Source of the DNA: Amoeboaphelidium occidentale
Taxonomy: Eukaryota
Direction of reading: 5' to 3'
DNA: 46,186 nt
NCBI GenBank assembly: GCA_023515795.1
Contig: JALGPX010000110.1
Location: forward strand, 1-46,186
Shown here piece after piece: positions 1 through 46,186 of this stretch. The first letter of the stretch is position 1, and each line of letters starts with the position of its first letter. The notes under the pieces are model-generated. The model ran no database searches and was not told the origin of the DNA. It saw only the letters and a program-made list of their open reading frames with translations. Made by a program: the position numbers and the translations under genes.

Positions 1-183
1 CGCGTAGAGGGCAAACATCAAAAGTTTAATACGTTTGAAGTGCTCAAAGTCTCGCCATTGAGTCAAGACATTGACAACTCATTGAGACAAAAACAACTTG
101 ATATCTACAGGGCTGATAAGCGTATACGTGAACGGGAAGGTATTGAGCCTGATAGGCGAGCTAGCAAACGATTGAGGAAATAG
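1..183 (+). CDS. Possible 3' end of a gene entering from the left edge (unknown product)
   Basis: Frame 1 is open from base 1 to TAG at 181-183 (RVEGKHQ...RRASKRLRK*), convergent with the next gene; no recognisable motif. Confidence 0.3.
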   Translation, partial: RVEGKHQKFNTFEVLKVSPLSQDIDNSLRQKQLDIYRADKRIREREGIEPDRRASKRLRK

Positions 184-246
184 ATGAATGGACCCAACGT
201 ACAATGAATGCTGATCAAGATAAAGAAATATCATAGGATTGATTCT

Positions 247-1390
247 TTATTCAAGAAGACTTTCAGGCGACTGAACGGGGGTTGTTTGAGTGGAGCACAA
301 ATAGCATTGAGTGACGATGAAGTGTACGAAACGATAAACGACCAGTATCTTTTCATCTCGAACCATCGGGATACCAAGAGCGAATTCATCCGAGGCCCAA
401 ACTTGGCCACCATTGTCAATGTAAATGAATTTCCAATTACTGGCATTTGAACAGATACCCCAAACATTACAATTTTGCTTCTTCGCATCTTTCCTTGTTC
501 TGAACAACGCAGCAGCCTCCGCGATACACTGCCATACATCATCTTCATCCCATGCTTTCTTAGCTTCAACTGCAATGATGTGAGATTCTTTAGGAGGCGA
601 AAAACTGTTGATATCTTCCCCGGCTGCATGTCCAATTGTGTAATCGTGTTTTCCTGAAAGCTTTCTCTTCTNNNNNNNNNNNCGCATCTTTCCTTGTTCT
701 GAACAACGCAGCGGCCTCCGCGATACACTGCCATACATCATCTTCATCCCATGCTTTCTTGGCTTCAACTGCAATGATGTGAGATTCTTTAGGTGGCGAA
801 AAACTGTTGATATCTTCCCCGGCTGCATGTCCAATTGTGTAATCGTGTTTTCCTGAAAGCTTTCTCTTCTTGTTCCCAGACACTGATTCAACAGTCATCG
901 ACAACTCACAAAAGATTCTCAATTTTCCAGCAAATTCCTCACGCGCCACAACATCTCGGAGTATAAGATCAATGAACGTTCTCCTACTAGCCTCGGAATT
1001 CATCGACCAGACTCGGCAGTTCTTGTCGTATTGATCTTTGAATCCTTCTGTTGGGAAGACTGATTCATCAAGTGCAACATCTTGCCAAAGTTTCCGAACC
1101 GTATTCACACCAGTAATGGACGCAATAACGCGATTATCCACGCCTCTAAATGTGTGTTCTTCTACATCAGGATTCAACTTTTGGGCAAAAGTGAGTCTTG
1201 AGCTCCATTCTTCTTCTTTCTTCTCCAACTTAGCCAATTGCGATTTAAGCAATGCTAGCCTTCGCTTCTCTCCTTTGCTAGGCCGTTCCTTCGAGTCGAG
1301 ATCAAGGATTTCCTTGTTGATTTCCTTGATTTCCGTCTCGACGGCCTCAAGTTTGGCAGCGCAGTATTGGAATTGCTGAGTTTGGTCCAT
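247..1390 (-). CDS. Coiled-coil plus PD-(D/E)XK restriction-endonuclease-fold protein (Crinkler REase / HsdR-N like); split by an assembly gap
   Basis: ATG at 1390 (MDQTQQ), coiled-coil N-terminus, then motifs NSEASRRTFIDLIL, GKHDYTIG, AVEAKK, WQCIAE, WGICSNASNWKF. Removing the 484-671/683-870 overlap gives one continuous ORF ending at TAA 247-249. Confidence 0.65.
484..870. repeat. ~188 bp near-identical duplication flanking N gap 672-682 (probable assembly overlap)
   Basis: 484-671 and 683-870 differ at only a few substitutions and abut the gap. Confidence 0.85.
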
Positions 1391-1409
1391 GATAAGAAAA
1401 CCGAAAAAG

Positions 1410-1782
1410 AAATTTCGACGCGTTATCCGGCCCGTTATCAAGTGACGTTTGTCTGGTAAACTCAATGGACTTTCACAACGATATTATTGCCGATTTGTTA
1501 ATCTTGGCTTCCGAACATTCACATTCATAATAACCGCTTGAACAGTCGCATCGCTCTTCTTCCCACGGAACCGAATCCTCATAGTGATACTCATANGAAA
1601 TTTCGACGCGTGATCCGGCCCGTTATCAAGTGACGTTTGTCTGGCAAACTCAATGGACTTTCACAACGATATTATTGCCGATTTGTTAATCTTGGCTTCC
1701 GAACATTCACATTCATAATAACCGCTTGAACAGTCGCATCGCTCTTCTTCCCACGGAACCGAATCCTCATAGTGATACTCAT
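1410..1782. repeat. ~185 bp duplication flanking N at 1596 (probable assembly overlap)
   Basis: gaaatttcgacgcg...gtgatactcata occurs on both sides of the single N. Confidence 0.85.
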
Positions 1783-2306
1783 ATTCATAATTCTGGTCAT
1801 ATTCCTCTTCGAATATTGTCGACGTTTCACTAAGAAACGCTTAACTTAGTTAACTGTAAACCTAGCAAGACCGAAATAAACGCACTTCGTTCACTTCGCG
1901 CTTAACTTTATTTGATCTACAGATCTACGTCAAATTACTCAGACACAACTCAGACCAAAACGGAAGTGTTTGTATTGAATCGACTAAACAGGAATTCGCG
2001 TTAATTCCAACACAAAGCACCTACAAGTCGTGTATTAATTCTGTCTAGTGAGGTTAGTGCAAGATTCTGAATCGCGCCTTTTATACTCGCGAGTTTTCAA
2101 GTTTCGTGGTTTCAAGAATCGCCGTTTCAAACAAGTTCATCACTGGCCTGGTTCAGCAGCTTCTGATGCTCTCTTTCACAAATTTCCGCTACGATATTCG
2201 ATGATCCAGCTATGTTACCACGTTGTCGAAAATACAACGTTGCATGATTCGATTACATGTAACAAGAAACCTGGTTCCTGTTAGAACCCAATTTTTCTGC
2301 ATAAAA

Positions 2307-3371
2307 ATGATGAATTGCAGTCCCTCATACAAGCTTTTAACTTTGCTCATCACCATCTTGGGTCTTGGCGCTGGCGTTGGTGCAGTTGTTCTCGACCGCT
2401 GTAATTTGCCAATGTTAGAGGTTGATTTGAAGTTCACTTTGCTGGATTTGGAATCTAGCAATAAATCGCATACATTGCAATTCGAACCCGCGATAGATGC
2501 ACTTATTGAAGGATATGGGACGTGGCAGTTCTCTGTATTCCAGAACGTAAACAACGGGAAAAAAAAGTTTGTTCGCGTAAGAATCAAGTGCGTGGAAAAC
2601 TGCCCTAGTGACGAGGGAAATACTCCCCCTCCCAGTGAACTCAGTTTATCATTGGTCCATCAGAGAAAGATTTTGAACAGCTATCATCCCACCTTAACAA
2701 GCGAGGATACTTGGAAAAGTTGGTCCACGAATATTCAAACGTATGGATTGAGCTACGACATGATGGAGGACAAGCCTTATGGTCAACCAGTTACATTATC
2801 AGTATCATTGAAGGTTCCAAGGCCGGTTGGTCATTGTGCTCGTCCAAACTCTGAAGTTTCGCGTTCAAAATATGCAGATTTATGTTCTAAGGCTATGAGC
2901 GGTGGAGAAGATGTTGTCACTCTACAATTTTACGGAAAGAATTACACGACGTTTCCATCTTTGCTAAAAGAGCATAGTCCTATGATAAAGGAACTTTTAG
3001 ATCTGCAAACTGAAACGGGCTCAAGGTTAAACCTGGATTTCAAAAGGTTCTCTGCTCGAGTTGGTGCAATGTTTCTTGAAGTAACTTGCAGCGGAGGAGT
3101 TTCTAAGGCAGACACTGAAAATCGCGCGCAATACATTTCAAACTTGATGAAACTCTATCAGTTGGGCCATTTTTATGGCATGGACAATATGATGACTGCA
3201 GCTATTAACGCTTTCTCGGATCTTTATCCTAAGCCGAATGGAGTTGAAGCGTATGACTTTATTCATTTGCTAAGGTCGATGCCATCAGCAATTGGGGATG
3301 ATTACGTCAACGAAAAGCTGAAGGTGACTTTGAAGTCGGAAGATGAAGAGGACAAGGATAATTCAGGCTGA
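2307..3371 (+). CDS. Protein with N-terminal signal-like segment and divergent C-terminal BTB/POZ domain
   Basis: Hydrophobic LLTLLITILGLGAGVGA after ATG 2307; BTB-like DVVTLQFYGKNY...LLKEHSPMIKELL...FLEVTCSG...LYQLGHFYGMDNM; middle region is beta-rich and MATH-like. Confidence 0.55.
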   Translation: MMNCSPSYKLLTLLITILGLGAGVGAVVLDRCNLPMLEVDLKFTLLDLESSNKSHTLQFEPAIDALIEGYGTWQFSVFQNVNNGKKKFVRVRIKCVENCPSDEGNTPPPSELSLSLVHQRKILNSYHPTLTSEDTWKSWSTNIQTYGLSYDMMEDKPYGQPVTLSVSLKVPRPVGHCARPNSEVSRSKYADLCSKAMSGGEDVVTLQFYGKNYTTFPSLLKEHSPMIKELLDLQTETGSRLNLDFKRFSARVGAMFLEVTCSGGVSKADTENRAQYISNLMKLYQLGHFYGMDNMMTAAINAFSDLYPKPNGVEAYDFIHLLRSMPSAIGDDYVNEKLKVTLKSEDEEDKDNSG

Positions 3372-3700
3372 AAGTAAAACCGCCGTTTTTGGAGTCGTTT
3401 TAATAAAAATTCTAAATCATATTCTGCAGGTAGTTTGGCGCTAAAGTCAACTCGTTTTTTTGTTCGCTATTGCAAGACTGAATATCAGTTAGCTCCTAAC
3501 TGAAAGCACGAAGCTGAACTGTTTCAATTGATCACTTATTCGCGCTCTAGAGAAGACAATACACTAAACAACAACTTCGGTAATGCTCAAACAATCGGCC
3601 TCGTGATTTTTCGATTTTCCAAAATCGCAATCAAGCATCGTTTGCATAGTTTTCTGCTTGCAATTCTTGTCTGTTTATTCTGAAGCAGCTCCTTTTGAAT

Positions 3701-5119
3701 ATGCGTGAGACAATGAATAATACTGCATCTATTGCTGCTGCTGGTGGGAGTGGTAATCTAAAGAGTGAATCTACAACAAAGCTCGCTGACGTTTCCGATG
3801 TTGATTCTGCTGGCACTGCTTCGCCGCCTAGACCAGGCCACGCTTTGGGATTGAAGACTCAAAAGATTACAAAACATGAGAAACCTCTGCGTCCATTCAA
3901 CCAGAAAGAAATCAAAATTCTGCTTTTGGAGAACATTAATGAATCTGCCATCGATGCTTTCGGCAAGCAAGGATATCAAGTAGAAACTCACTCCAAAGCA
4001 TTACCAGAAGATTTGTTAATTCAAAAGATTGAACATGTCCATGCGATCGGTATCAGAAGCAAGACTCAACTCACAGAGAAGGTCCTGAGACACGCAAAGA
4101 ATCTTTTGGTTATTGGCTGTTTCTGTATTGGCACAAATCAAGTTGACTTGGATTACGCTGCATCCCGTGGAATCGCTGTATTCAATTCTCCATTCTCCAA
4201 CAGTCGCAGTGTTGCTGAGATGACAATTGCGAATATTGTGAATTTGGCTCGTCAGATTGGTGATCGTTCTGCTGAAGTTCACAGAGGCTGTTGGGCTAAA
4301 GTCAGTAAAGGCTGTTACGAAGTTCGTGGGAAAAAACTGGGCATTGTTGGTTATGGTCATATTGGTTCCCAGTTGTCTGTTTTAGCAGAAGCAATGGGAA
4401 TGAATGTTGTTTTCTTTGATATTCTTCAGATCATGCCTATTGGAAGAGCACAGCCTATGGATTCTTTGAAGGATTTATTGAAGGAAGCTGACTTTGTTAC
4501 TTTGCATGTACCAGCTACTCCAGATACTCGTGATATGATTGGAAAGGAGGAGCTAGAAGTTATGAAGAAGGGCAGTTACTTGATTAATGCAAGTAGAGGA
4601 AATGTGGTTGTTATTCCTGCTCTAGTGGATGCATTGAAGGCTGGACACTTGGCTGGCTGTGCTATTGATGTTTACCCACAAGAACCTGCTTCAAATAGTG
4701 ATGGTTTCCAGTCACCACTGCAAGGTTGTCCAAACACTATTCTTACTCCACACATTGGAGGATCTACAGAAGAAGCACAATCTGCAATAGGAGTCGAAGT
4801 ATCAACTGCATTATCAAGGTATGTAAACACGGGCACAACTCTGGGAGCTGTCAACTTCCCAGAGAATGATTTAAGAGCATCTGTTCCGGAATCAAAGACT
4901 GCTAGAATCTGTAATATTCACCACAATGTTCCTGGTGTCTTGAAGGAAATCAATCGTTGTCTGGCCAACTTTAACATTGAAAAACAGATTTGTGACAGCA
5001 AAGGCAGCATTGCTTACATGATGGCAGACGTTAACACAGACAAGGAAGAAGACTTGAAGGAGATTTACAATTCTTTGAATGGATTGAAGGAAAATGTTTT
5101 AACAAGAATCTTGTATTGA
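3701..5119 (+). CDS. SER3: D-3-phosphoglycerate dehydrogenase (Ser3/Ser33 type, C-terminal ACT domain)
   Basis: IGIRSKTQLT, CFCIGTNQVDL, NSPFSNSRSVAE, GIVGYGHIGSQLSVLAE, LTPHIGGSTEEAQ, HHNVPGVL. Confidence 0.96.
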   Translation: MRETMNNTASIAAAGGSGNLKSESTTKLADVSDVDSAGTASPPRPGHALGLKTQKITKHEKPLRPFNQKEIKILLLENINESAIDAFGKQGYQVETHSKALPEDLLIQKIEHVHAIGIRSKTQLTEKVLRHAKNLLVIGCFCIGTNQVDLDYAASRGIAVFNSPFSNSRSVAEMTIANIVNLARQIGDRSAEVHRGCWAKVSKGCYEVRGKKLGIVGYGHIGSQLSVLAEAMGMNVVFFDILQIMPIGRAQPMDSLKDLLKEADFVTLHVPATPDTRDMIGKEELEVMKKGSYLINASRGNVVVIPALVDALKAGHLAGCAIDVYPQEPASNSDGFQSPLQGCPNTILTPHIGGSTEEAQSAIGVEVSTALSRYVNTGTTLGAVNFPENDLRASVPESKTARICNIHHNVPGVLKEINRCLANFNIEKQICDSKGSIAYMMADVNTDKEEDLKEIYNSLNGLKENVLTRILY

Positions 5120-11656: not shown

Positions 11657-12859
11657 CAGAACTCTACCATCTTCACAACCACAAATAATACGCTCTTCAC
11701 TCCATTTGACACAAAACAATCGTCCCAAATTATTCTTCTGCTTTGGTTTAATTGTGAACAGCGCAGTGCTAATCGCGTCTAAATCCCATAACTTCATTAC
11801 ACCGTCGTAACCAACAGACACGAACTTTGAGCTTTTTCCTTCCATACAGAAACTAACACCAGTAACCCATGACTTATGAGCTTTCACGGCTTTCTTGTTA
11901 ACTTCCAGTTGTAAATCATTCTGTTTCTTTGAGGACAGAGGATCATTCCAGACTCTGATAACTCCATCTGCATGACCTGCTATTATACAAGCCAATGAAG
12001 AACCTTCTGAGTTGACACGAGCATCAATTGAACAAACTGCGTGATCGCTACCGACACTAGCAAGACATGCGCGCTGTGATAAGGACCAGATACGAACAGA
12101 CTTATCCATACTGCCAGATATCAAATAATCATTTCCAACTGAAGATAAACAAGATACGGCATCGCTGTGCCCCGTCATTATGAATGATGGATCTTGTTTA
12201 ATTAACTTTCTTCGCTTGGATCTTTCTTCGCCAGTTTCTTGCTTTGGCTGCAGAGCGTACAAGCTTATTGAAGCATCATAGCATCCAACAGCAACGAACT
12301 CTCCGCAAATGCGAACACTCTCAACATTCTTAACGTCTGAGCGCCATAATTCTCTTAATTCGACTTCTTCGTCGTCTTCTTTAGGAGGATAATTAGAAAT
12401 CTTTGCAGCGCAAACGCCATTAGAACCACCGTAAACTAAAATATCACCATTGCAATGAATACTTTTAACAGAACCATCGACATCAAATTTCTTGCCTGCT
12501 ACAGTGATATGGCCATATCCACCAAACACTACTGCGCCACTCTTGGTGCGATCTACTGCGAGAACATATGAATCGCTTTCTTCTGTGTCGCATCGACTAA
12601 CGCGTACAGATTCCAATACCTCCAAAGTCAACACGTTCTCAGTTGATAAATGCTCCTTCTCTACGTACTCTTGAAGTGATGTAGAAAGCAAGCTCTGGTT
12701 GATAATAAAATCATAGTGTTTGCTCGATGATAGCAAATGGTTCACGATGGATGACAGTCCGCTTCTTGTCAAGCTCAAAGGAACGCGTAATCGAACATCC
12801 TCCAAAGCTACAGCCAACGGTTGAATAGCGCTTGTGAATTTCACTTGGATTTCTGCCAT
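11591..12859 (-). CDS. YTM1: Ribosome biogenesis protein Ytm1/WDR12 (NLE domain + WD40)
   Basis: QVKFTS..VPLSLTRSGLSSIVNHLL..YDFIINQSLLSTSL..HLSTENVLTLE (NLE/UBL domain); WD repeats GH..SGSMDKSVRIW, HKSWV..SVGYDGVMKLWD. Confidence 0.88.
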   Translation of the reverse strand: MAEIQVKFTSAIQPLAVALEDVRLRVPLSLTRSGLSSIVNHLLSSSKHYDFIINQSLLSTSLQEYVEKEHLSTENVLTLEVLESVRVSRCDTEESDSYVLAVDRTKSGAVVFGGYGHITVAGKKFDVDGSVKSIHCNGDILVYGGSNGVCAAKISNYPPKEDDEEVELRELWRSDVKNVESVRICGEFVAVGCYDASISLYALQPKQETGEERSKRRKLIKQDPSFIMTGHSDAVSCLSSVGNDYLISGSMDKSVRIWSLSQRACLASVGSDHAVCSIDARVNSEGSSLACIIAGHADGVIRVWNDPLSSKKQNDLQLEVNKKAVKAHKSWVTGVSFCMEGKSSKFVSVGYDGVMKLWDLDAISTALFTIKPKQKNNLGRLFCVKWSEERIICGCEDGRVLSYNANSKVTENKEEEKEIVGK

Positions 12860-12984
12860 TTGACAAGGTTTTGATGTTTGATCAGAAAAATTTGCCGAGG
12901 TGCAGGAGTTATTGCGCTTTTCTAGCAAAATGATCAACGAGAAAAACTCGAAAGTCGTAGTCGCACGATCACAATGCGTCACAA

Positions 12985-13132
12985 TACACAGAAGCATCCT
13001 AACATAAGTTAAAACTATAACTTACATTAAGACTACTGCTAATCAAGTCTTTCCCAGAACATCATTGGCTGCCTCTACCTAGTTTCTGCGTCGAGATCAC
13101 ATTGAGGCATTTGATGGTGTTGAAACACCAGA
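12985..13132 (-). ncRNA. Putative Fanzor omegaRNA scaffold, copy 1
   Basis: Directly 3' of the Fanzor stop; shares GCCTC..ATGTGRTC..AGAA..CTAGGYRGAGGCAGCCAA.GATG..GAAAG..TGATYAGC..GRTGCTTYTGTGTA with 45817-45934; terminal hairpin 12996-13033. Confidence 0.75.
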
Positions 13133-16045
13133 TTAGTTTCCCCTACGGAACGCCGGGGGCTTTCTACCACCATTGGCATTCATGTATAAGAAAACTCTTC
13201 TGATATTCCTTGCTCCATTCACATCTCGATTCCAGCGGGTCCGGCAGTTGTTATTGTTGCAACTCTTGATCGTCCAGATATCGGATTGAACTAACTCATT
13301 ATCACACTTCGAGCACAATTTGCTTGTCCTAAACTCAGGAACCAACCTGCACCTTGTTCTTCGTTTCAATTCCAAGAAAAGATGTTTGTTTGGAGTGGGT
13401 GGATGTCCTCTGGAGTTGTGACTGAAACCTCCACCACCATAAGCAATCACAACATCTTCAGCACCAGCAGCAAGCTCCTTATATAAANTATATAAAGTAT
13501 CATACGCCTTCTGTCGTTTAATTCGCGTCGTCCACCGGAGTCTTCTCCAACGCATGGCCCGGTAGAACCCAAGAAACTCATCGCGATATTCCAAAACATG
13601 TAACAAGTGTGTAATGTAACCATCTGTATTAGAACAGCACGGTGTTGGAGTTAAAGTAATCGCCATATGCCTGTCACGATCAGCTGTTATCCAAGTGTTT
13701 GCCTTCTTGGTAGAGTATCTAGTCCCTGATATCTCTTGCCAGCGACTGTTTGAACATTCCAAAACATCAGCAGCGGTATTCCCAGCCACGGCCACATACA
13801 GAGAGTTTCTGCCAGGGTCCAAAGCATCAACACGAGTCTGCCCATTAATTTCCAGAGGTATAAATTCTCCCTCATAGTTGTAACCCCAATCATTGATCTC
13901 AGATCTCTCAAACTGTTTCATGTTANCACGGTGTTGGAGTTAAAGTAATCGCCATATGCCTGTCACGATCAGCTGTTATCCAAGTGTTTGCCTTCTTGGT
14001 AGAGTATCTAGTCCCTGATATCTCTTGCCAGCGACTGTTTGAACATTCCAAAACATCAGCAGCGGTTTTTCCAGACACAGCGACATACAAGGAGTTTCTT
14101 CCCGGGTCCAAAGCAACAACACGAGTCTGCCCATTAATTTCCAACGGTATAAATTCTCCCTCATAGTTGTAACCCCAATCATTGATCTCAGATCTCTCAA
14201 ACTGTTTCATATTATGCTGGTGATATTCAACGCCATTAGTGGAAATAGAAAACCCAAAGCGCTTTGTAGCCGTAGTGAGTTTGTCTACGTTGAATGCTCG
14301 GCGCCACCATTCCATAGCATGAACTCTGAAAACTACTTTATCCCGAGGAACAACAATCCCAATATTCTCAGAAGTCATTAGATCATGTAGAGCGTCAGTA
14401 TCAATGAGTATAAACTTCTGTTTAAAAGTACTGATGGGAATGAGACTAAACAATCTCAAACCTCTCCCGTGNGGTATAAATTCTCCCTCATAGTTGTAAC
14501 CCCAATCATTCATCTCGGATCTCTCAAACTGTTTCATGTTATGCTGATGATACTCAACACCATTAGTGGAAATAGAGAAACCAAAACGCTTTGTAGCCGT
14601 AGTTAGTTTGTCTACGTTAAATGCTCGGGGCCACCATTCAATCGCATTAACTCTGAAAACCACTTTATCTCTAGGAACTACAATCCCAATATTCTCAGAA
14701 GTCATAAGATCATGCAGAGCGTCTGTATCAATGAGTATGAACTTCTGTTTAAAAGTACTGATGGGAGTGAGACTAAACAATCTCAAACCTCTCCCGTGTA
14801 TCCCATTCTCCTAGCGATTCTGAGCATCTTGTTTATAATTATTAACAAACGTTTTCAAAAGCCTGGACATCGGTTTTAAGTATGTCCTATTCAAAGTAAA
14901 AGTAGAGCACGGGGGATTATTAGAACTGTGATAGTTATTTATTAAATAGAATTTCATGGTCCTTTTTATATTTATTTCAGTTTCATCATTCAGATAAAGT
15001 ATCCAATCTTGAGAGGGCAATGACGGTTGTTTCAGGTCATTCATGATGGAATGACGCTTGTCGTCCGTGAACCATCAAACTTCAACACCCCCTCTAGCNG
15101 CTCCGGAGTAACAGCCTCAATGATGTTTAGCGGAATAGCGTAGAATCCTTCGTCCTCTTCAGTTCGTGTGATTTCATTCATTGCTACTGTAACGACTTCG
15201 TTAAAATCATCTGCACATAAGAAAGCTCTCAATTGTTTACCACGTTTCCAAATCAACCACTTCTTGATCCATTTTAAAAGATTAGTGACCACATGGTTTT
15301 GGCAGTTTGTAGAATGCATCCTAGCCATATTTGAAAGGAGCTGCCCTAACTTGGTGGAGTCATTCCAAGCCAAATGATCAGGCCTGCACCTCGAATATAT
15401 CTCATCCATATACTCATTTATCGAAGGAGTTGAAACAATCTTGTGTTAGTGTGGATTTCTAACTGCGTTAATGGAACATACTGCCTGATAGAACTCTCTC
15501 ATTATACCATCACTAAATCTCAAATCTGGAATGGGTCTGTTCTCTTCAATCATCCAAATCACGTATCCATTCAATAGACGTGAAACTTCAACTTGGATGT
15601 CGGTACAGCGTGCAACAGCATCCATAATAATGTCTTTGAGAGGAGCAATGCGCAATACTGAGTTCAAACCAGTAGTGGTCGTGACGGTCTTTTCAGGCAA
15701 CTCAGTATCTCGATACTGCAGTTTCAACCTAGGCTTGTACAGGGGACAGTTCTTGTTGCAGATTCTCTGATGCTCCGTACTGCCACACTTGCACCTTTTG
15801 CCGCCTTCTGGTTCCTTCCGTTTCTTTCCTCCTGCACTTGGGCCAATGCCACCCAAATCACCCACATCAACTGCCACTCCAGAATACTCAACCATACTCA
15901 TACTCAAAAACCCGTCCGTAGTAAATGTCTTTGGCATTTCATTCTCATCAACTCTCATATTTAAATCCAAGTCCATAGCGTCCTCAACTCGTAGTAAATG
16001 GTACTTATTCTTATGCTCGAAAATACTCATTGAATCCGTAGCCAT
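13133..16045 (-). pseudogene. Fanzor1-type RNA-guided endonuclease (TnpB-derived RuvC), disrupted and fragmented by assembly gaps
   Basis: RLFSLxP..FILIDTDAL, SISTNGV, RuvC-I ALDPGR, VIAYG, GHPPTP, RuvC-II VPEFRTSKLCSKC, Zn pair SCNNNNC, RuvC-III WNRDVNGARNI, C-terminal PPAFRR. In-frame stops at 15446-15448 (TAA) and 14811-14813 (TAG); N gaps at 13488, 13926, 14472, 15099. Start codon uncertain (16045, 15976 or 15901). Confidence 0.9.
13638..14798. repeat. Gap-flanking duplicated Fanzor segments (13638-13922 vs 13927-14211; 14134-14471 vs 14473-14798, approximate)
   Basis: Same protein segments appear twice with substitutions (VDALDPG/VVALDPG, AVAGNT/AVSGKT, WWPRAF/WWRRAF), each joined at an N. 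Confidence 0.85.
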
Positions 16046-16899
16046 ACAAAAAGAGCAAAAGCGAGCTAGCTTTCGAAGAAAGAATGCCTTGAAAGATGGT
16101 TTATGCGTGTGGCGTATGATTTCCCTGCTTGGGTCGAGTTGAAACAACGCGGTTCGTGCTGAAGTCGATGGCATCTTATTTACTCTTAAACGACCAAGGG
16201 ACATGGAATTCACGGATTTTCACGACGATATAGCTTGCTAATGATGTAAAACACTCATATTCACTGGTTTGGATCAACGCCTGAAGTCTAGAAGATATTT
16301 GTGGTATTTGTATGCGTTGCCTGTTACAGCCCAAGGGGCTTAAGGCGTTTTTGCACATTGATGCTACAGATACAACGAGCTACAGTAAGGAGTCTCATGA
16401 CTTCCTCATGAAGAATATATGTCTTGTTAATAAAGATCTTTCATCCGTGTTGAATAATCTTCGATTTAATACTTGTATCTCAGTTGTTTGATTCAAGAAA
16501 ATTGCCAGATTGACCTCTGCCGGGAATTGTAAAAATCTCTAGCCTCAAGAACTTTTCAATCAAAACATAATGCTATCACGCTAATTTAAGCTTAGAGAAA
16601 GACAATGGTAGCTTCATATCCTCGGTTACTTCAAAACTAGAGGAGTAATGCGGTCGGAGAAATTTCAGACCCGTTTGTTCTCCGACCGTATAGCTGAATG
16701 ATTCAGGCACCAATTGTAACAGTTGAGGTACCGATAGAAAGGGCGTACTTTGTCCTTAGTTTGGATGTAGATTTTATTGAGTTTTAGAGTAGTATGATGA
16801 ATTTTTAGTCCACTATGAAAATGGGCTGTCGTGAAACAACACCTAAACGTCACAGACACCTATAATATCAATATCAATCGATAGACAATAGAGTAAAGA

Positions 16900-19321
16900 C
16901 GACCATTATGGAAGGTCAGACTAAAATAGTTAGAACTGTTGAAGATATCTCGCTAAAACTGCTTTTGATGCATAAACGGTGCGCTTATGCTACGAAGCTG
17001 AAACTCGAGCTTCGAGCCCTTTGAGTGTTCCTATTACGATATCCATGCTTCTTATACCTCTATTCGTCTTGGTTGTTACGTTTTCAGCACATTTCGATGT
17101 TTGATTCGATCTTCGCTCGCTCTTGCTCGAGATTTGCTGCAATATCAAACAGCCCTCAGAAAAAACTACCATTCTTACGAATAAAATCAAGTGGCTTAGG
17201 GAATAAACGATAATTTGAATTCTGATGGTCTGGAACGCAATTTATTTAGAATGTTCTTGATAATCCTTCCTTCTTTGATTGAAACAGCGCGATCGCGATC
17301 AAAACATGGCGGCATAGCTTGCGTCCCAACAACTTAAGCCNAATTTGAATTCTGATGGTCTGGAATGCAATTTATTTAAAATGTTCTTGAAAATCCTTCC
17401 TTCTTTGATTGAAACAGCGCGATCGCGATCAAAACATGGCGGCATAGCTTGCGTCCCGACAATCTGTGCCAAATCTGATGGATGATTCTGAAAAGACATC
17501 ATGTGAAGCTCCTTACGCGCGAAATTCAACTCTCAAGCGTGAGTCTTGAGAATGCTTGTTGCCAATTGTTTCTCTGATTGTGAACTTTCTTATAGTTAGA
17601 GTGTGTTTAGCTCCAAAATAGCATATAGAGTTCTTTACCTGTCAAAGATAAAGGAATAGAGTCATACGATAAGGACGTTCAAGAAGAAGTCCATTGAGTT
17701 CTCACATGAGATCAAACATCAGTCTGAAACAACACCACCAAAACGCTACCGTTTCCCGAACTTTAAGCGTCATTTGAAAGAATAGTTAGAAAAGACTCTG
17801 AAATGGGAGTTTCATGGGTGCCGACTTAGAGCTGGCTCCGATATCTCGCTGAAACCACTTTTGGCGCATAAATGATGCCCCGACGCTGTGAAGCGGAAAC
17901 TTTGGCATAGAGCTCCAGAGCATCGAAACTACAATAAACATGCTAATTTTTTCCATGTAATAATGTAATTCTTTAGGAATTTCGATTTTGCTCGAATATT
18001 GAAAGTGCGAAAAGTAAAAGAATTTTTCTGACGGAAACAGCTGCAGAGTCTCAACAAGAAACGACATCGTATACAATGGCGCATACTGCGTTGGCAAGCT
18101 ATTGAAACAATCATCCGAGCGCAGGAAGACGGTGTACGAGTGTAACAAAGTGCTGAGTGGAGCGTGGTTCAAGCAGGCTTTCAAGATGTTTATTTCCAAA
18201 GATAGAAGCATAACAGTTCCACAGAGATAAGAAGACGCATTGAACTTCAAACGTTCATTGATATCTCCAGCCGACGCTGTGTCAATTAGAGGCAGGCTCC
18301 ATAAGCGTGTACTCCACACAGACTATTCAGTCTCTCCAATATGATCTTGAAACAGCCGAGGGTGATGAAGCGGAGCATATCTGAAGATTCAAGTCACCAG
18401 TTACGTCTCAGAGATGTAATATCNCCATCCGAGCGCAGGAAGACGGTGTACGAGTGTAACAAAGTTCTGATTTCAGAGTGGTTAAAGCAGGCTTTCAAGA
18501 TGTTTATTTCCAAAGATGGAAGCATAACAGTTCCACAGAGATAAGAAGACGCATTGAACTTCAAACGCTCGTTGAAATTGCCAAATAACGCTGCGTCAAT
18601 TACCGTCAGGTTCCATAAGCGTGTACTCCACACAGACTATTCAGTCTCTCCAATATGATCTTGAAACAGCCGAGGGTGATGAAGCGGAGCATATCTGAAG
18701 ATTCAAGTCACCAGTTACGTCTCAGAGATGTAATATCATCAGTATCGTGACTCTGAACTNTGATCTTGAAACAGCGGAGCCTGATACAGCGGAGTAGATC
18801 TGTGGCTACAAGTCACCAATTACGTCTCAGGGCTGTAGTATCATCAGTGCTGTGACTCTGAACGGTGGTTCCTTTAGTAATATCATAATGTTAATCGACC
18901 GTTAGTCCAACAGAAGCAATAAAAGAAGGTGAGAGGACTTTTCGAGCGTTTTTATTACGTTTTCTCGCGTGAGGAGCTAACTCGGACTCGCTGACCAGCT
19001 AACTCGGACTTCGCGAGCTCGATTTTGCAAAAAGTTTGCAAATCACAATAAAATCTATTTGGTATGGAGTTCATGTNATCTGAAGATTCAAGTCACCAGT
19101 TACGTCTCAGAGATGTAATATCATCAGTATCGTGACTCTGAACTGCGGTTCCTTGTGCAGTATCATAATCTTAATCGACCGTTAGTCCGATAGAAGCAAT
19201 AAAAGAAGGTGAGAGGACTTTTTCGAGCGTTTTTATTACGTTTTCTCGCATGAGGAGCTAAATCGGACTCGCTGACCAGCTAACTCGGACTTCGCGAGCT
19301 CGATTTTGCAAAAAGTTTGCA
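16900..19321 (-). pseudogene. Decayed, tandemly repeated sequence/gene family of unknown function
   Basis: 16944-17025 resembles 17840-17920; 18112-18423 is repeated at 18425-18735; blocks near 18650-18880 and 18800-19020/19078-19321 recur; reading frames carry many stops. Confidence 0.5.
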
Positions 19322-19414
19322 GGAGTTACAAAATCTAACCGTTTACACCGTTTCGTCAAACACTTGTTCATTCGTAAAAGTTTTACTCCTCGGTTTGATC
19401 AGAGATTATTAGCT

Positions 19415-20075
19415 ATGGCTGCAGTTCAAGTAAGATCTGATCTTTAGAAGGATACTGGTACTAATCGCTTCAGGAACACAGAGATGAGATCATCAAGGCA
19501 TATGAAGATGTTCGGTAATATGATCACATAGTAAATGATCTTCTTACAGATTGATAGCAATGACAAGACTGAGACAAACTGGTTACTGTTGAACTATACT
19601 GATGGAAAAGATTCCGTTCATGTTGCTGGTACTGGTTCTGGTGGCTTAGAGGAGTTGAAGCAACACTTGAAGCCTGATCATGCTCAATTCGGTTTTGTCA
19701 GACATGGTACCGCTTTTAGATGAATTGCCAACTTATAACTTTAAATCGAATAGTCTACTCTAACGATCCATTGTCTCAACGTGCAAAGTTCGTTTTCATT
19801 TCATGGTGCGGACCTCAAGTCAAAGTCATGAGAAAGGCAAAGTTGACAGTTCAAATCGCCGACATCAAGACAATTATTAAGGTATAATAGTATGAAATAT
19901 CGACATTGAGTTAACATGGTAGAGTTTTGCAGTTGAAGTTCAGGCTGACGATTTGGATTCTTTGAGTCTTGCTGAGGTTGAAAAATTGATCAAGAAGGCT
20001 GGTGGAGCAAACTGTAAGATTTAAGTTCTATTAAATGCTTATCTTTTAGATGACAGACAAGCTTCAAATTACTAA
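19415..20075 (+). CDS. Coactosin-like ADF-H actin-binding protein (6 exons)
   Basis: Spliced reading MAAVQ|EHRDEIIKAYEDVR|NDKTETNWLLLNY..GTGSGGLEEL..QFGFVR|..SQRAKFVFISWCGPQVKVMRKAK..|SFAVEVQA..KKAGGAN|YDRQASNY* using five short GT-AG introns. Confidence 0.9.
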
Positions 20076-20109
20076 GAAGCTTTCTAGTGGGACAAGAATA
20101 GATTTGATT

Positions 20110-21612
20110 TTAGTCAGAATCCTCGCGTTCTTCTAATGCTCCAACCTGTTTACTATAAGTCTTAATTCCAGCCATGTCCAAAAATTCAAGGACTTCCTGT
20201 TTTTGAGCTCTTTTACCAGAAGCCCTTAGCGCTCTTTCCCTGTCCAGAGTCTGTTTTGAGATTTCTTTCACTCTGATCGCATACACTTTGTCAATTAAAA
20301 ATTCTTCTTGTCCTGATAATGTTGGATTCTGAAATGTAGATGACACAGGATTTGCCTTAGAGTGACCGTGTATAAAATCCGCAGATAAAAAGAAGCCAAA
20401 GTAGTCAAATTGACCTCCCATTCCCAAACCATTCGGTAACGTATGAGTTCCATACTCAAAATATTGATAATTAGTGTTGAATGAAGATGCAGGATAAAAT
20501 GAAAAGCTAGGCCTTAATTGAAACAAAAAATTATTGGATGTACCATACCATTCGGGCCTTACATCCCATTCCTTCTCTGCGAAACAGCCAAAGTAATGAT
20601 TATCCTTGTCTTTTACAATGATCAAAGTAGAGCCTATCATTGTAATGCGATCAATGAAAGGATTAAAAGCATGACCATCTCTCAGAGAGTCATAAGCCAA
20701 GAACCATTTGGTACAAAAATCAGAATGTAAATGAAAATGCAGAAACCAAACATCTTCAACAGTCATGAAATCAGGTACAGCTTTGGTTAAAAATAGAGGT
20801 GGCTTCAGCAGGAACTTCCTTGCTTTTTGCTTAGCGAGCTTTTTATCCATTTGGGTTTTCTGAGGCATTTGATCAGTTGTTGTTGGTGACGAATTAGTAG
20901 CAGCTGTCGTATTCAATTCAGCTTTAGGCGGAGCAAATATTCTGATAAAGAAATTTTCTATAATCCTTCGAATGTAGTTATTGCTACCAACCCATTCAAC
21001 GAATTTTGAGACATCTTTTAAGTCCAATGTTTTATAATCAATAGTCTTCTCTGTATGCTGCAACAGAAACTGAGCAGCTGCTCCGTGCGCAGAAGACGGC
21101 AAAGGATCAGAGTCTTTTCCTGATAAAATACGATGTATGAAGGCGTCACTTAATTGTTCCGGTAACTTCAATTCATCAAAACTTCCCTTGTATAATGTCA
21201 TCTCGATCTTTATGAGCTTTCTGGCCCATGACTCTAAAGATCGCGCATTACTTATGTTCCACAGTATATGAATAGCACGAGCTGTAGCGTAGTATGAATC
21301 GTCAGTAACAAAGCTAGTGAACTTCAACACATCAACGAAACGCAAAGCTGTCCCACTTGCCCTTGGCTCAGTAAGCTTTGCTGAAACAGAAGCTGCACCG
21401 GATAAGTACTCTAAATTGGCGAATATCAGGGGAAACCTCGAAGCAACTTCATCAGGAACATGAGGGAACATCACTTTGAATTGAGCAGCTCTGAATGCTT
21501 TTGTATGACCATCAACCATTCCATCGTAAACCTTCCGTAAATATGCTGCTTCTTTTGCGTCGAAATGCTGTAAAATATTCTGCTCTTCCTCTTTCGAATG
21601 TCCGTGGCCCAT
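20110..21612 (-). CDS. TLDc-domain protein (Rtc5/MEAK7-like), probable N-myristoylation
   Basis: MGHGHSK start; YDSLRDGHAF, TLIIVKD..FGCFAEKEW..YGTSNNFLFQL, PNGLGMGGQFDYFG, TFQNPTLS. Confidence 0.88.
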   Translation of the reverse strand: MGHGHSKEEEQNILQHFDAKEAAYLRKVYDGMVDGHTKAFRAAQFKVMFPHVPDEVASRFPLIFANLEYLSGAASVSAKLTEPRASGTALRFVDVLKFTSFVTDDSYYATARAIHILWNISNARSLESWARKLIKIEMTLYKGSFDELKLPEQLSDAFIHRILSGKDSDPLPSSAHGAAAQFLLQHTEKTIDYKTLDLKDVSKFVEWVGSNNYIRRIIENFFIRIFAPPKAELNTTAATNSSPTTTDQMPQKTQMDKKLAKQKARKFLLKPPLFLTKAVPDFMTVEDVWFLHFHLHSDFCTKWFLAYDSLRDGHAFNPFIDRITMIGSTLIIVKDKDNHYFGCFAEKEWDVRPEWYGTSNNFLFQLRPSFSFYPASSFNTNYQYFEYGTHTLPNGLGMGGQFDYFGFFLSADFIHGHSKANPVSSTFQNPTLSGQEEFLIDKVYAIRVKEISKQTLDRERALRASGKRAQKQEVLEFLDMAGIKTYSKQVGALEEREDSD

Positions 21613-24414: not shown

Positions 24415-25497
24415 TTAAAGAAGCTGAGATAGAGCCATTACTGAAGCAATTAGGAGCATCCAAGATGGCACGACTGTAGAAGCACCAGAGATCTGACCGT
24501 TGTCATCAATATCATCAGGAGTTGTGGTTGGGATCAAAGTTGTGGTTGCAGTTGAGCTCGTGCTTGAAGATGAAGATGATGTGGAGGTTTTGGTAGAAGT
24601 TGAGCTAGTGGAGGTAGTGGTTTTGGTTGTAGAGGTTGAAGTTGAAGTCGAGGTCGATGAAGAAGTGGAGGTTGATGTTTTGGTGTTGGTGCCAATGACG
24701 CAGAAGTCAGCAAAATTGATTCCACCATACACGCTGTCCATAAGATCAAACATGAACTTTGCTTGATCACGTAGTTTGTTTCTTGTGTCAATACTGTATG
24801 CAAAACGAATGGAGTTGTGATAGATCATTGAAGCAACTGCGAACATCTCATAATGATTTGATCTTAAGTATGCGCCAGTGAATAAATCTGGTCTTGCTGC
24901 CAAATCCAAATCGTAGACTGAAATTATCTTATCGGATATCTTTTTGAATTCAGGCAAGTCATCAATTGCAGCGTTCAAAGCATGAGCGAATTCGTGTTGC
25001 AATACATTTTCACCCAAATAAGCGCCATTAGGTGCTTTTGCAACACTAGGACCATCAACATAAATAGCTTTGTAAGGGCGTATTGAATTTGCCCACATAA
25101 AGACAGCCTTGTATGCATCATAGTGATCAGCTTCGGGGAAATCCAATGCACTCTGAGAACCATCCATCAAGACGATCACAATACCAGCTGATCCCAAGTA
25201 AGAACATAGCTTGGCAGTTTTTTCAGCTGAACACATGCTGTTAACCGTGTATAGAGCATTGATCAAAGCATATTTGTGAGTTGCATCGTTCGTATACTTA
25301 TCGGATGCAGTAATAACAATACCAGATGAATGCTTGACGTATTTTTCGTAATATGTTGGTAACTTGGCGGTTCCTGACACGATAACCTTTCCATCATTAG
25401 TTTTTATGGAAGGATCAGGGCATGTTGCATCAATTAATGCTGAAACAGTTGACAACAACAAAGATAATGTGTAAGCAGAGAATGTTGTAAGTTTCAT
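24415..25497 (-). CDS. Secreted, probably GPI-anchored zincin-like (HEXXH) protein with Ser/Thr stalk
   Basis: Signal peptide MKLTTFSAYTLSLLLSTVSA; HEFAH at 24982-24996 followed by YLRSNHYEMFA; S/T-rich tract; hydrophobic C-terminus. Confidence 0.75.
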   Translation of the reverse strand: MKLTTFSAYTLSLLLSTVSALIDATCPDPSIKTNDGKVIVSGTAKLPTYYEKYVKHSSGIVITASDKYTNDATHKYALINALYTVNSMCSAEKTAKLCSYLGSAGIVIVLMDGSQSALDFPEADHYDAYKAVFMWANSIRPYKAIYVDGPSVAKAPNGAYLGENVLQHEFAHALNAAIDDLPEFKKISDKIISVYDLDLAARPDLFTGAYLRSNHYEMFAVASMIYHNSIRFAYSIDTRNKLRDQAKFMFDLMDSVYGGINFADFCVIGTNTKTSTSTSSSTSTSTSTSTTKTTTSTSSTSTKTSTSSSSSSTSSTATTTLIPTTTPDDIDDNGQISGASTVVPSWMLLIASVMALSQLL

Positions 25498-25702
25498 TTG
25501 TAATGTTTTGAATTTAACGATACTTCACGACTTCGTCCCTGAGTTTATGTACCATTCGTCCATATTGAAATTAGCATCAGATGTTACTAATTCAATTTAG
25601 ACTAATCTCCTGTGGTGCTGCAACATATTATACGTCACCCGCATCGTTAAGTCATCAGGCAACATGTAAAAGTATCATAAGTCTGATCATCGGCACGTTT
25701 TG

Positions 25703-35125: not shown

Positions 35126-35350
35126 TTCACTATTCCGGGAAAGCTTGAAACAGCGTTTGATACAAACAAACAGGCCACAGCGGACTCGGAAGGGTGAAGG
35201 GGAATGAGTATGCGAACACTGGGATATCTGAGGGATCACAAGCATTCAACAGCTTTCTTGCTTTACCCTCATGAAAGATTTTAGACCGATTTCCCGTGCT
35301 TATCTTAGAAGTTGGCGTAAATCTGATAGTTTCATAAGACTGACTGCGGA

Positions 35351-37132
35351 ATGATTAAAACATCTTTAATTAACCTTACAATCCTTCTTTGCATTTGTTT
35401 CAAATTAAATTGGGCTTCGGTGCCATGGAATTTATTCTTACAGACGGACTCTGAAGGTGAAGTAGTCGAAAGCCCCGAGTTAAATGAGCTGAAACAGGTC
35501 TGTCGTGATCTAAAACAGAAGCATGGAGCCAATGGACAGGAAGGAATATTTTGTCATCCAAGCGAAAGCAACAAAATGCTTTACTGTTCTCAAGGGGAAG
35601 AAGCATTCATTATTGACTGTCCGTCAAAATATTCATGCAGAAGTCACGCAAAATTGAAATGGTTGAAGGCAGCTGATGATCAAATTACAGCTGAAGGCTC
35701 TGAAGTGCAGGATGAAGTTTCAACTGAAGATCTGGATGGTGAAGAATTGGAGGAATCTAATGGTTGGCTTCTATCGGAGAAGGTACAGAATCAGAAATTT
35801 GCCAAACACAATTTGGCTCAGTGTGTTCGCGATGATCAACTGGATCTAGACAATTACTGTGAAGATGAATTATTTTCGTTTTATTCTGAGGATGCGTTCG
35901 ATAAGTCTTGGAATGGCACAAAGGAAGAAGAAGAATTGTTGGCTTCCAGAGCGCAGGATTTAAACGATGATTATGATATCAGCAATGACAATGGTGAAGC
36001 AATAGCTGCTGTTTCTCTATGCAATCCTTTCAAAATAGCAAGGAAGCATCTTGTTAAATGTTTCTTTGTCCGAAAGGATTGTGGGCTTAAATTAGATTCT
36101 GGCCGATGCTTTGAAACAAGGGAAGTTCAAATGCAAATGGAAGATTGTCAACAGTATGATATGTGCAGGCATTACAGAAATCAGGATGCTTCCAGAAAAC
36201 ACTCTGCAAAGTGTCATTCTCCTCTGGATGCCCTGTGTTTGGATAGATTCTGGTCAATTTACTCGAGTGATTTCATGAGCTCATTGGAAGAGACAACCTT
36301 AACTTCTTTCCTGCCATTTACAAAACTGTCGAACTTTAAATTTTGTGATCCTTTCAGGTCACAGAAACAGTTGGAATGTCGAATTGAATGGCATGTATCT
36401 CCGTTACCGAGTTTGACACATCAAAGCATTCTCGCTCCATACGAGAAAGAATCCATGAAGAAATACATTAGAGATAGATTTCCTGATCTTTACAAGGAAG
36501 TTTATCCTGTGTCGCAAGGATTTGATGATAGCGTACTTAAAAGAAGATTTTCCATTAGACCTCTGAAAATTGATGTGGTTCATCATTACTGTCCAGGCCA
36601 AGCTGAATTTGTTGCTGGATCATCTGAATTACCGCAAGAGGAAACTGTTACTGATGATTACGATGATATGGAGATTGATGATTCTAGATACTATACAACT
36701 GGTCCTGTTTGTAAGCAGCTAACAAGAAAGACTTCCATTTGCTCTCCTGAATCTGCTCTTAGAATTGGAATTGATATTGTGACGGAGGACAAATCAGAAA
36801 GGCATGGAGAGAATTCGCAATTGAAGTTGGAGGCATTTCCCGGATTTTGTTTAGGACGACAACCTGGTCAGTTCTGTTTACCGGGTACGCCTGATGTTGG
36901 GATCTTTTGCCCTGCTGGTAAAATCATTCGTTGCAGAAGACCAGCTGCAAGTCAAATCTCTGATGTTGACGACAATACATTGAGATGCATTCAAAAACAC
37001 GGCGATATACCAAAAGAAACGTACTCTGGAGATCCTTTCAGAAATGTTAAAATTCAAGATTTGGAAGGAAATGAAGTTTTTTATGGAGCTTGGGCAACTT
37101 GTGGACCTCAAACAGATCAAGTTTCGCAATAG
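35351..37132 (+). CDS. Cys-rich secreted or membrane-anchored protein of unknown function
   Basis: 593-codon ORF, hydrophobic N-terminus, recurring GxFC..P..YC..C and FCDP modules. Confidence 0.65.
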   Translation: MIKTSLINLTILLCICFKLNWASVPWNLFLQTDSEGEVVESPELNELKQVCRDLKQKHGANGQEGIFCHPSESNKMLYCSQGEEAFIIDCPSKYSCRSHAKLKWLKAADDQITAEGSEVQDEVSTEDLDGEELEESNGWLLSEKVQNQKFAKHNLAQCVRDDQLDLDNYCEDELFSFYSEDAFDKSWNGTKEEEELLASRAQDLNDDYDISNDNGEAIAAVSLCNPFKIARKHLVKCFFVRKDCGLKLDSGRCFETREVQMQMEDCQQYDMCRHYRNQDASRKHSAKCHSPLDALCLDRFWSIYSSDFMSSLEETTLTSFLPFTKLSNFKFCDPFRSQKQLECRIEWHVSPLPSLTHQSILAPYEKESMKKYIRDRFPDLYKEVYPVSQGFDDSVLKRRFSIRPLKIDVVHHYCPGQAEFVAGSSELPQEETVTDDYDDMEIDDSRYYTTGPVCKQLTRKTSICSPESALRIGIDIVTEDKSERHGENSQLKLEAFPGFCLGRQPGQFCLPGTPDVGIFCPAGKIIRCRRPAASQISDVDDNTLRCIQKHGDIPKETYSGDPFRNVKIQDLEGNEVFYGAWATCGPQTDQVSQ

Positions 37133-38421: not shown

Positions 38422-39252
38422 CTACAATACAACTACACAACGATCAGAACCAGCGTCACCAGTCATACCAGTGTCACCAATAAACGATCTTAACCTTTTT
38501 GGTGTAAAACATTTACGTTCTTCACACGAACTCTTCTTTCCCTTCTTTGGCAATTCATTCTTATCCTTCTTCTTGTGTTGTTGCTCTTCTTCCTCTTGCT
38601 CTTTTGTCTCATCGTAGTCCTGATCCAACAACTTTCGATTTTGCTCAGAAGGACAGCCACATCCTTTCACACAGAGACTGAACGGATCATAAAGACAAAC
38701 CATCAGGACTCTTCCTGAATCTTTTCTGATGTGGCCTCCATTCACACCAAAACATGAAACCAACTCATAAACGCCGGAATAAGCCGAACTTTTACTTCCA
38801 GGTGCGTCGTAAATGTGAAGGTACTTCTTGCCATACTCCAACTGAGCTTCATTACTAACTGAGTCATCATCATTGGGAGACATAACCAACTGGGCCAAGT
38901 AATACTCCTTCACAGCATAATTGCATAATTGATTACCAGCCAATGGGTTCTTGGTCCTCTTGACTGAATTACCGTTACCATTCGCAGTTGTGATTGAATT
39001 AAAGTATGGTGAGATGATCTCAGAAGAGGCGACAATTATGGTGGTTTCCTTTGCTACAGTGCCACTCTGATCATCGACACCATCATCACTGCTGCTGTTG
39101 CTACTGCGGACATGGCGATGCTTCATCTTCATATGATCAGGAAAGTTGTAAGGCACTGCGATGAATGAATTGTAAATAGAATTGGAGTTAATGCCGTAGA
39201 AGGGCTGCTCAGAAAGTGTTTGTGGGTGTTGTTTTGAAATTTGTTTCGTCAT
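38422..39252 (-). CDS. Hypothetical protein
   Basis: ~276-codon ORF with low-complexity and charged tracts; no recognised domain. Confidence 0.55.
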   Translation of the reverse strand: MTKQISKQHPQTLSEQPFYGINSNSIYNSFIAVPYNFPDHMKMKHRHVRSSNSSSDDGVDDQSGTVAKETTIIVASSEIISPYFNSITTANGNGNSVKRTKNPLAGNQLCNYAVKEYYLAQLVMSPNDDDSVSNEAQLEYGKKYLHIYDAPGSKSSAYSGVYELVSCFGVNGGHIRKDSGRVLMVCLYDPFSLCVKGCGCPSEQNRKLLDQDYDETKEQEEEEQQHKKKDKNELPKKGKKSSCEERKCFTPKRLRSFIGDTGMTGDAGSDRCVVVL

Positions 39253-45725: not shown

Positions 45726-45816
45726 AACGATCTCGATTACAGTATTTTCCTGAAAGTAAGCAAGGCGATTAAAACAAAATAAAAAATGACCTTGATCAAT
45801 TCCAAGAAAAACACTG

Positions 45817-45944
45817 TACACAAAAGCACCCATCACCATATTACTACAGTGATGAGCTATCGCTGATCATGGCTTTCATGAGAGTCATCTTTGGCTGCCT
45901 CCGCCTAGACTTCTCCACCATGACCACATGAGGCTGTTGTTGTT
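45817..45944 (-). ncRNA. Putative Fanzor omegaRNA scaffold, copy 2
   Basis: Homologous to 12985-13108; terminal hairpin GCTCATCACTGTA-GTAA-TATGGTGATGGGT (45828-45857) with a GNRA loop. Confidence 0.75.
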
Positions 45945-46186
45945 TCAGTTACCATGCGGGTTTCCCCTTCGGAACGCTTCAGGCCTGTAACCACCATTAG
46001 CATTCATATGAAGGAAAACGCGCATGATATTCCTGGGTGCATTGACATCTCGATTCCAGCGGGTCCAGCAGTTGTTATTGTTGCAACTCTTGATCGACCA
46101 GAATCGAGACTGAACCAGTTCATGATCACACAACGAGCACATCTTGCTCGTCCTGAACTCAGGCACCAACCTCGCCCTTGTTCTTC
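45945..46186 (-). CDS. C-terminus of a second Fanzor1-type nuclease (truncated by window edge)
   Basis: VPEFRTSKMCSLC..SCNNNNCWTRWNRDVNAPRNI..PEAFRRGN; 56 of 70 residues identical to copy 1 by manual count. Confidence 0.9.
   Translation of the reverse strand, partial: RTRARLVPEFRTSKMCSLCDHELVQSRFWSIKSCNNNNCWTRWNRDVNAPRNIMRVFLHMNANGGYRPEAFRRGNPHGN

Follow-up and report, generated by a model that had tools for sequence, protein, structure and literature searches.

A broken Fanzor1 gene of Amoeboaphelidium occidentale lies in a multi-copy element that is likely to be mobilised in trans by a pogo/Tc1-mariner transposase

Analysis of a 46,186-nucleotide stretch of the genome of Amoeboaphelidium occidentale (contig JALGPX010000110.1, hereafter the window) indicates that its Fanzor1 gene, broken and mosaic as assembled, probably belongs to a multi-copy element of about 5 kb, which is likely to be moved in trans by a TA-duplicating transposase of the pogo/Tc1-mariner type and whose intact sister copies would encode omegaRNA-guided DNA nucleases. 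A. occidentale is a parasite of algae, and Fanzor1 is a eukaryotic cousin of CRISPR-Cas12. The locus is real, correctly named Fanzor1 and previously catalogued; what is new in the present analysis is the anatomy of the element. The protein itself holds no surprise for specialists, because Fanzor-like sequences number in the thousands (7,007 representatives at a threshold of E 0.001) and this one already stands in two published tables.

The window gene corresponds to the annotated model MP638_002260 (KAI3657448.1), which is the best homologue of its C-terminal piece. This protein is row 1432 of Supplementary Table 1 of Saito 2023 (PMC10432273), labelled FZ1 (node338) with the coordinates 13133-15976 on the minus strand, and also row 196 of Table S2 of Yoon 2023 (PMC10711439); the tables of these papers name the genus 38 and 112 times, respectively, and include sister copies, among them the copy-2 type described below. 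Since the locus is already in these tables, the novelty implied by the preliminary description does not hold. The two published rows, however, contain only an automated 783-aa model that splices round both premature stops and retains the gap duplicates, and they are silent on element ends, the empty site, the omegaRNA and the target-adjacent motif (TAM), with further detail possible elsewhere in the Saito supplement. Full-text literature searches recovered no paper combining Amoeboaphelidium with Fanzor, A. occidentale with 'transposable', or Fanzor with target site duplication and microhomology, and the supplements of Jiang 2023 held no match.

The gene runs on the minus strand from MATDSMS at 16045, a start shared by two further A. 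occidentale models that align from this position, to a TAA stop at 13133-13135. It comprises the following features:

13133..16045, minus strand: Fanzor1 gene, a five-contig mosaic broken in the assembly (KAI3657448.1, published FZ1)
14094..14114, minus strand: RuvC-I DPG motif (ALDPGRN), contig C, from motif search
13805..13825, minus strand: duplicate of the RuvC-I DPG motif (ALDPGRN), contig D, from motif search
13319..13339, minus strand: RuvC-II glutamate in PEFRTSK, from motif search, the E lying six residues before the CxxC
13244..13315, minus strand: TNB zinc finger CxxC...CxxxxC, from motif search and Pfam
13217..13234, minus strand: RuvC-III aspartate in WNRDVN, from motif search
15746..15793, minus strand: N-terminal CxC-G-x3-H-x-R-x5-C, a putative zinc knuckle, from motif search

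ALDPGRN is present twice because of assembly overlap. With the RuvC motif definition (regular expression) taken from Yoon 2023 (PMC10711439), the DPG-to-glutamate distance is 158 residues, 3 gap-derived codons being counted in, and PEFRTSK aligns with the equivalent motif of SpuFz1, GtFz1 and PpFz1. The zinc site scores 34.2 bits against the Pfam Cas12f1-like_TNB model (cut-off 26.3). The D/E/D triad with its repositioned glutamate, the zinc site and the long N-terminal region noted in the preliminary description are all present.

Sequence, profile and fold searches converge on the Fanzor1 assignment first proposed from motifs, in agreement with the published FZ1 label. Among PDB sequences the window piece best matches PpFz1 (6e-5) and GtFz1, and a family profile of 17 sequences groups the protein with Fanzor, reaching SpuFz1 at 4e-18 and GtFz1 at 7e-7 as against 0.07 for TnpB. 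For the fold comparison an intact relative with 61% identity (P0003) was used instead of the broken window protein. Its AlphaFold model (pLDDT 82.5) matches the three Fanzor1 structures with E values between 1e-18 and 1e-22, SpuFz1 being reached at E 1e-22 and TM 0.63-0.75, but Fanzor2 only at 7e-5; as modelled, the family would have a large REC/WED N-terminal half and an overall fold that is Fz1-like, not Fz2/TnpB-like. The N-terminal knuckle motif, which is shared by 32 of the 98 homologues that are at least 600 aa long, falls in a low-pLDDT region of this model. None of 31 long homologues carries a fused transposase domain, and searches of viral-contig and genome-contig collections found no relatives.

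The scaffold joins the gene from five contigs, with N gaps at 13488, 13926, 14472 and 15099. The duplicates flanking the Fanzor gaps are 95.5% and 92.6% identical as against 98.4-98.9% at two host-gene gaps, and their synonymous divergence is 0.16 and 0.28 as against 0.05-0.08; because this exceeds the host-gene values, they stem from different copies, i.e. the scaffold mixes paralogues, and indeed supply additional family variants as earlier supposed. Comparisons among such variants gave dN/dS of 0.07, 0.06 and 0.24 (Fisher p at most 2e-5), the signal peaking in the Fanzor frame, and judging by these substitution patterns the variants are under strong purifying selection; a working nuclease in the family is plausible. 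The reading frame of the assembled copy is interrupted as follows:

15446..15448, minus strand: premature TAA, where the sister models P0002, P0008 and P0031 have Gln
14811..14813, minus strand: premature TAG, where sister models have Leu
14887..15098, minus strand: 212-bp insert with a pyrimidine-rich AG end, an intron or small repeat without homology to the Fanzor protein

The TAA lies inside a contig of metagenome run X1 that is identical to the window, at a depth of 50, half the single-copy depth; X1 is possibly the source sample and so is not independent support. The TAG is absent from the listed contigs of runs X1-X3, in which the frame is open at this position. At the N gap at 15099 about 34 codons are missing relative to sister models. 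Two ways of reading through the stops were rejected: an alternative genetic code, as TAA, TAG and TGA each terminate long host ORFs, and a 24-nt micro-intron around the TAA, as the sister models are colinear with Gln at the site. Contigs of runs X2 and X3 diverge from the window at 14887, and one of them carries on with in-frame coding letters. Separately, the 212-bp insert is multi-copy, has an acceptor-like 3' end and is missing in some X2/X3 contigs, and one X1 contig joins it in inverted orientation (14465/15087); it may be a polymorphic intron or small repeat within the Fanzor gene.

The preliminary description had also pointed to a second copy of about 80% identity and to a recently mobile, multi-copy family, and both stand. 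The second copy lies 32.8 kb away (45886-46186; 77.7% nucleotide identity over 305 bp, 80% amino acid identity over 75 residues), with only its last 75-80 codons falling within the window:

45945..46186, minus strand: 3' end of the copy-2 Fanzor1 ORF, a diverged subfamily, truncated where the contig ends

Its C-terminus matches KAI3657602.1, listed as FZ1 in Saito 2023 (PMC10432273). Depth in X1 jumps sharply from about 100 in the flanks of the window element to 165-4200 within it, summed depth not being equal to copy number. Two X1 contigs of 218 and 340 nt reach depths of 730 and 753 against 101, about 7x single-copy, implying near-identical recent copies. Thirteen A. occidentale gene models fall in the same subfamily by identity or 90% cluster, and the insertion site is empty in three runs. 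These data bear on the notion that the family is dead or nuclease-inactive in A. occidentale and that the selection signal is left from an earlier active phase. The two stops and the insert of the assembly, with the TAA in a read-derived contig, would fit this, as would the fact that none of the 13 same-subfamily models is complete and free of duplications. However, the models break at assembly gaps, the ~7x contigs indicate recent copies, and the catalytic residues are intact with dN/dS of 0.06-0.07, so that we regard a dead or nuclease-inactive family as highly improbable.

Beyond this subfamily, A. occidentale has several more divergent Fanzor1 families (P0027, P0024, P0028, P0006, P0018 and P0040), of which P0027 (MP638_000897) resembles two Fanzor-like units within one gene model. 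Four related metagenome loci (L002, L003, L004 and L005) carry Fanzor1 genes in which what appear to be spliceosomal introns interrupt the RuvC region at common positions.

The ends of the element were delimited from contig ends, depth and empty-site contigs:

12909..19321, minus strand: non-autonomous Fanzor1 element as assembled, 6.4 kb
16046..19321, unstranded: left part of the element, without recognisable gene, about 2.45 kb non-redundant
12909..12922, plus strand: right terminal inverted repeat and adjoining TA; loose ends of runs X4 and X5 begin at 12909
19038..19051, minus strand: full-length left inverted repeat of another copy, 11 of 14 bases matching the right repeat
12901..12911, plus strand: first copy of an 11-bp direct repeat, right junction
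19318..19328, plus strand: second copy of the 11-bp direct repeat, left junction

Freed of its gap-flanking duplicates the element measures about 4.96 kb, plus the length hidden in N gaps, and its neighbours are a divergent NLE+WD40 gene on one side and a gene of the cofilin/ADF family on the other. When contigs were mapped on 12300-20300, unique X1 contigs stopped at 12935 and resumed at 19292. In all three of the other metagenome runs compared (X2, X3 and X4) contigs of an empty site join 12904 to 19342, bridging them by 21-32 letters that resemble window 19322-19341; these alleles are not the direct pre-insertion sequence, because the strains they come from are diverged and have another 20-bp spacer, without the TA. 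The left part contains an internal repeat of 61% identity (16835-17049 and 17731-17944). As a separate observation, its summed depth in X4 is 4-160 as against about 0-13 over the central Fanzor ORF (single copy 5.7), a pattern suggestive of numerous 'ghost' derivatives that lack the ORF in the X4 organism.

The left end, for which an alignment of left flanks had been proposed earlier, is marked by an 11-bp duplication here, and a full left end is present in other copies. The full left end lies in a contig (18761-19076) that is a stray from another copy, put here by the scaffolder, and six X4 contigs diverge behind 19051. The terminal inverted repeats are 14 bp long and imperfect, and both arms begin with TTA, the left arm being that of another copy; the repeat pattern was built from the two ends 12909-12922 and 19038-19051 themselves, which makes its chance figure circular. 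A TA abuts three separate ends, namely both right ends (copies 1 and 2) and the full left end, and as the latter is known from a misplaced contig and one other run's loose ends, no single insertion with both TA ends was observed in A. occidentale. The copy-1 repeat begins with TTG as against CAG/CTG in copy 2 and in the pogo-type relative L001 described below. Repeats of pogo/Tc1 elements often begin with CAG.

The insertion at 12909-19321 itself has a precise right end and lacks about 8 left-terminal bases. Its left junction lies, with the 11-bp repeat, within a unique X1 contig without a single difference; the repeat has 2 matches in the window against 0.01 expected, the first 4 bases of its 19318-19328 copy double as subterminal bases of the element (microhomology), and a TTTT stands one base before this left copy. 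The published Fanzor1 elements MCi-2, with 11-12-bp target site duplications and fuzzy 5' ends, and CRe-1/2/3, with 7-19-bp duplications after TTTT (Bao and Jurka 2013, PMC3627910), provide a precedent for another interpretation, in which duplications of 11-12 bp or variable length and ragged 5' ends are the norm for the family and the element moves by a one-ended or target-primed route (Helitron2-like or retro-type) or through a Crypton-like recombinase. The only insertion with both junctions, having the 11-bp repeat, precise right and clipped left ends and nearby TTTT, is what such elements would leave, but a longer left end, mirroring the right one, is common to six X4 contigs, the pogo element of the relative L001 has TA at its ends, and no recombinase, HUH or reverse transcriptase domain was found in the element. 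We accordingly consider movement of the MCi-2/CRe type unlikely. Because the single 11-bp duplication recalls these elements, a repair-completed or one-ended mechanism does retain some probability. In a more specific form, repair of a break, instead of a transposase that joins both ends cleanly, would complete the insertions, and the junction would be the footprint of a Fanzor-assisted cut-and-copy step; this we hold to be improbable. On the favoured reading, movement in trans by a TA-duplicating transposase, the window insertion would be an imperfect event, with a precise right end, about 8 missing left bases and an 11-bp duplication ending in 4-bp microhomology.

In keeping with the preliminary description, which had seen no transposase, a Pfam search of upstream ORF pieces found none within the element: 15 pieces (of 41 listed) gave no match to a transposase, recombinase, HUH or RT domain or to any other Pfam model. 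The region 16046-19321 is matched by none of 203 fetched proteins, and no frame in it is under significant selection. A 178-aa ORF at 17786-18322 was considered as a partner gene and rejected, having no Pfam match, no homologue of 313-2000 aa, no Atlas match and no sign of selection. The clue to the mobilising partner comes instead from L001 (contig JACCDR010440871.1), one of five related metagenome loci, in which a pogo-type DDE_1/CENP-B transposase is encoded just upstream of a Fanzor and both are enclosed by a 32-nt inverted repeat with T-TA and TA-A at its borders. The L001 Fanzor (P0007) is 48% identical to that of the window, and the window model falls in the same clade (SH-aLRT 98) in a quick tree of RuvC-region pieces from 78 of 161 proteins, from which mosaic, short and motif-lacking rows had been dropped and which was built without named Fz1, Fz2 or TnpB references. 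Since this relative sits in a complete pogo element with a TA duplication, pogo/mariner mobilisation in trans is likely for the window element. The L001 transposase has no match anywhere in the window, and none of its 33 homologues is named A. occidentale, most of them bearing no name. L001:133-4075 appears by itself to be a complete autonomous pogo element with transposase and Fanzor1 in two open frames.

The right end of the element is predicted to yield a guide RNA, by analogy with characterised Fanzor1 systems:

12909..13132, minus strand: predicted omegaRNA scaffold of about 225 nt, from folding, its shape shared with copy 2
12894..12908, minus strand: predicted guide, the genomic flank read through by the omegaRNA, from SpuFz1 and the SfAV Fanzor1
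45737..45944, minus strand: predicted omegaRNA and right end of copy 2, with TA beside a CAGT-type repeat start, the boundary placed by analogy

In copy 1 the 227 nt from the stop codon to the right end fold better than all of 200 shuffles (z -3.75) and the last 132 nt give z -3.26; in copy 2, whose right end lies 11 bp from the stop codon of a kynureninase gene, the values are -4.06 over 224 nt and -7.6 over the last 128 nt. The last ~130 nt of both copies adopt one shape in spite of different sequence: a 4-bp stem, a 2x4 internal loop, a variable hairpin, a G and a long stem in which, in either copy, the terminal repeat would pair with a complement further inside. In copy 1 the predicted core stem with its loop spans 13040-12987, and the terminal stem, which takes in the right inverted repeat, 12986-12909. 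L004 and L005 give the same core shape in hand-delimited blocks with boundaries set by eye, and across the four loci 2 of the 4 pairs of the core stem change on both sides; over 261 nt L004 folds weakly (z -1.35), and L001 did not yield the shape (z -0.96). Automatic RNA alignments and consensus folds did not recover the shared structure because of misalignment, and Rfam returned 0 matches. A further locus, L006, matched by the RNA-core pattern, was rejected as a chance hit with no Fanzor nearby. Folding of terminal inverted repeat and target site duplication into the scaffold has been described for Fanzor1 (Yoon 2023, PMC10711439), and known Fanzor1 RNAs extend 14-15 nt beyond the right end (PMC10432273, PMC10711439). 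The TAM is predicted to be TTA/TA.

Conservation across the four loci ends at GTGTA, after which copy 1 continues with 8 bases identical to those that open the full left end. The scaffold might hence be thought to stop at the conserved GUGUA past the core stem, with the next 15 nt acting as a fixed internal guide that resembles the element termini, and the nuclease would then be directed to the ends of related transposons, not to the vacant site. Yet in both copies this stretch is predicted to be locked in the long stem with G-U pairs, the copy-1 match reaches only 6 nt past the TA, copy 2 is mismatched at the fifth base, and the RNAs of known Fanzor1s run past the right end; a fixed internal guide thus seems very unlikely. 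With a flank-derived guide, the preferred reading would be as follows: a non-autonomous, TA-targeting element is moved in trans by a transposase encoded elsewhere, and its guide would direct Fanzor1 to cut sites that are vacated or empty, with both cutting and repair modelled on SpuFz1 and TnpB.

Elsewhere in the window several long ORFs have no Pfam match. One of ~360 aa (24415-25524, minus strand) has a signal-peptide-like start, a HEFAH zinc-peptidase-like motif, a Ser/Thr-rich tail and a hydrophobic C-terminus, which we take to resemble a secreted or anchored metalloprotease. Another (231-1483, minus strand), duplicated across a gap, has a coiled-coil start and an EAKK motif that is presumably reminiscent of PD-(D/E)xK nuclease-like domains. 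Those at 35330-37132 (plus strand; cysteine-rich with a hydrophobic start), 2205-3371 (plus strand) and 38422-39345 (minus strand) lack matches at E 0.01.

The biological role of Fanzors was stated to be unknown in Saito 2023 (PMC10432273). The locus supplies a test case in this regard: its ends are mapped, related strains have the empty allele, an omegaRNA and a TAM are predicted, and an autonomous pogo element falls in the same clade. With these the TAM can be assayed and cutting at the empty site put to the test. Should insertions indeed be finished by break repair, a present/absent site in a culturable host would make an in vivo role of Fanzor directly testable.

The window element can be compared with several described systems. 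Like the MCi-2 and CRe elements it shows a long duplication and a ragged 5' end, seen once, at the window insertion; however, MCi-2 as described lacks recognisable inverted repeats whereas the window family has a mirrored left end in other copies, and the CRe elements, unlike that of the window, are Helitron2 derivatives (Bao and Jurka 2013, PMC3627910). L001, too, differs in having its own DDE_1/CENP-B transposase, another repeat sequence and a non-matching 3' RNA shape. The best fold and profile match is SpuFz1 of the Spu-1 elements of Spizellomyces punctatus (Saito 2023, PMC10432273), to which the P0003 model is 16-18% identical in structural alignment. Relative to Spu-1, the window element has 2.4 kb of additional left sequence, short imperfect inverted repeats as against 30 nt, and a predicted scaffold of ~225 nt as against 75 nt in SpuFz1, and the putative N-terminal Cys/His knuckle of its Fanzor may be a further difference. 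Nevertheless, both elements are multi-copy, bear inverted repeats, lack an internal transposase and have an RNA at the right end, here a predicted one.
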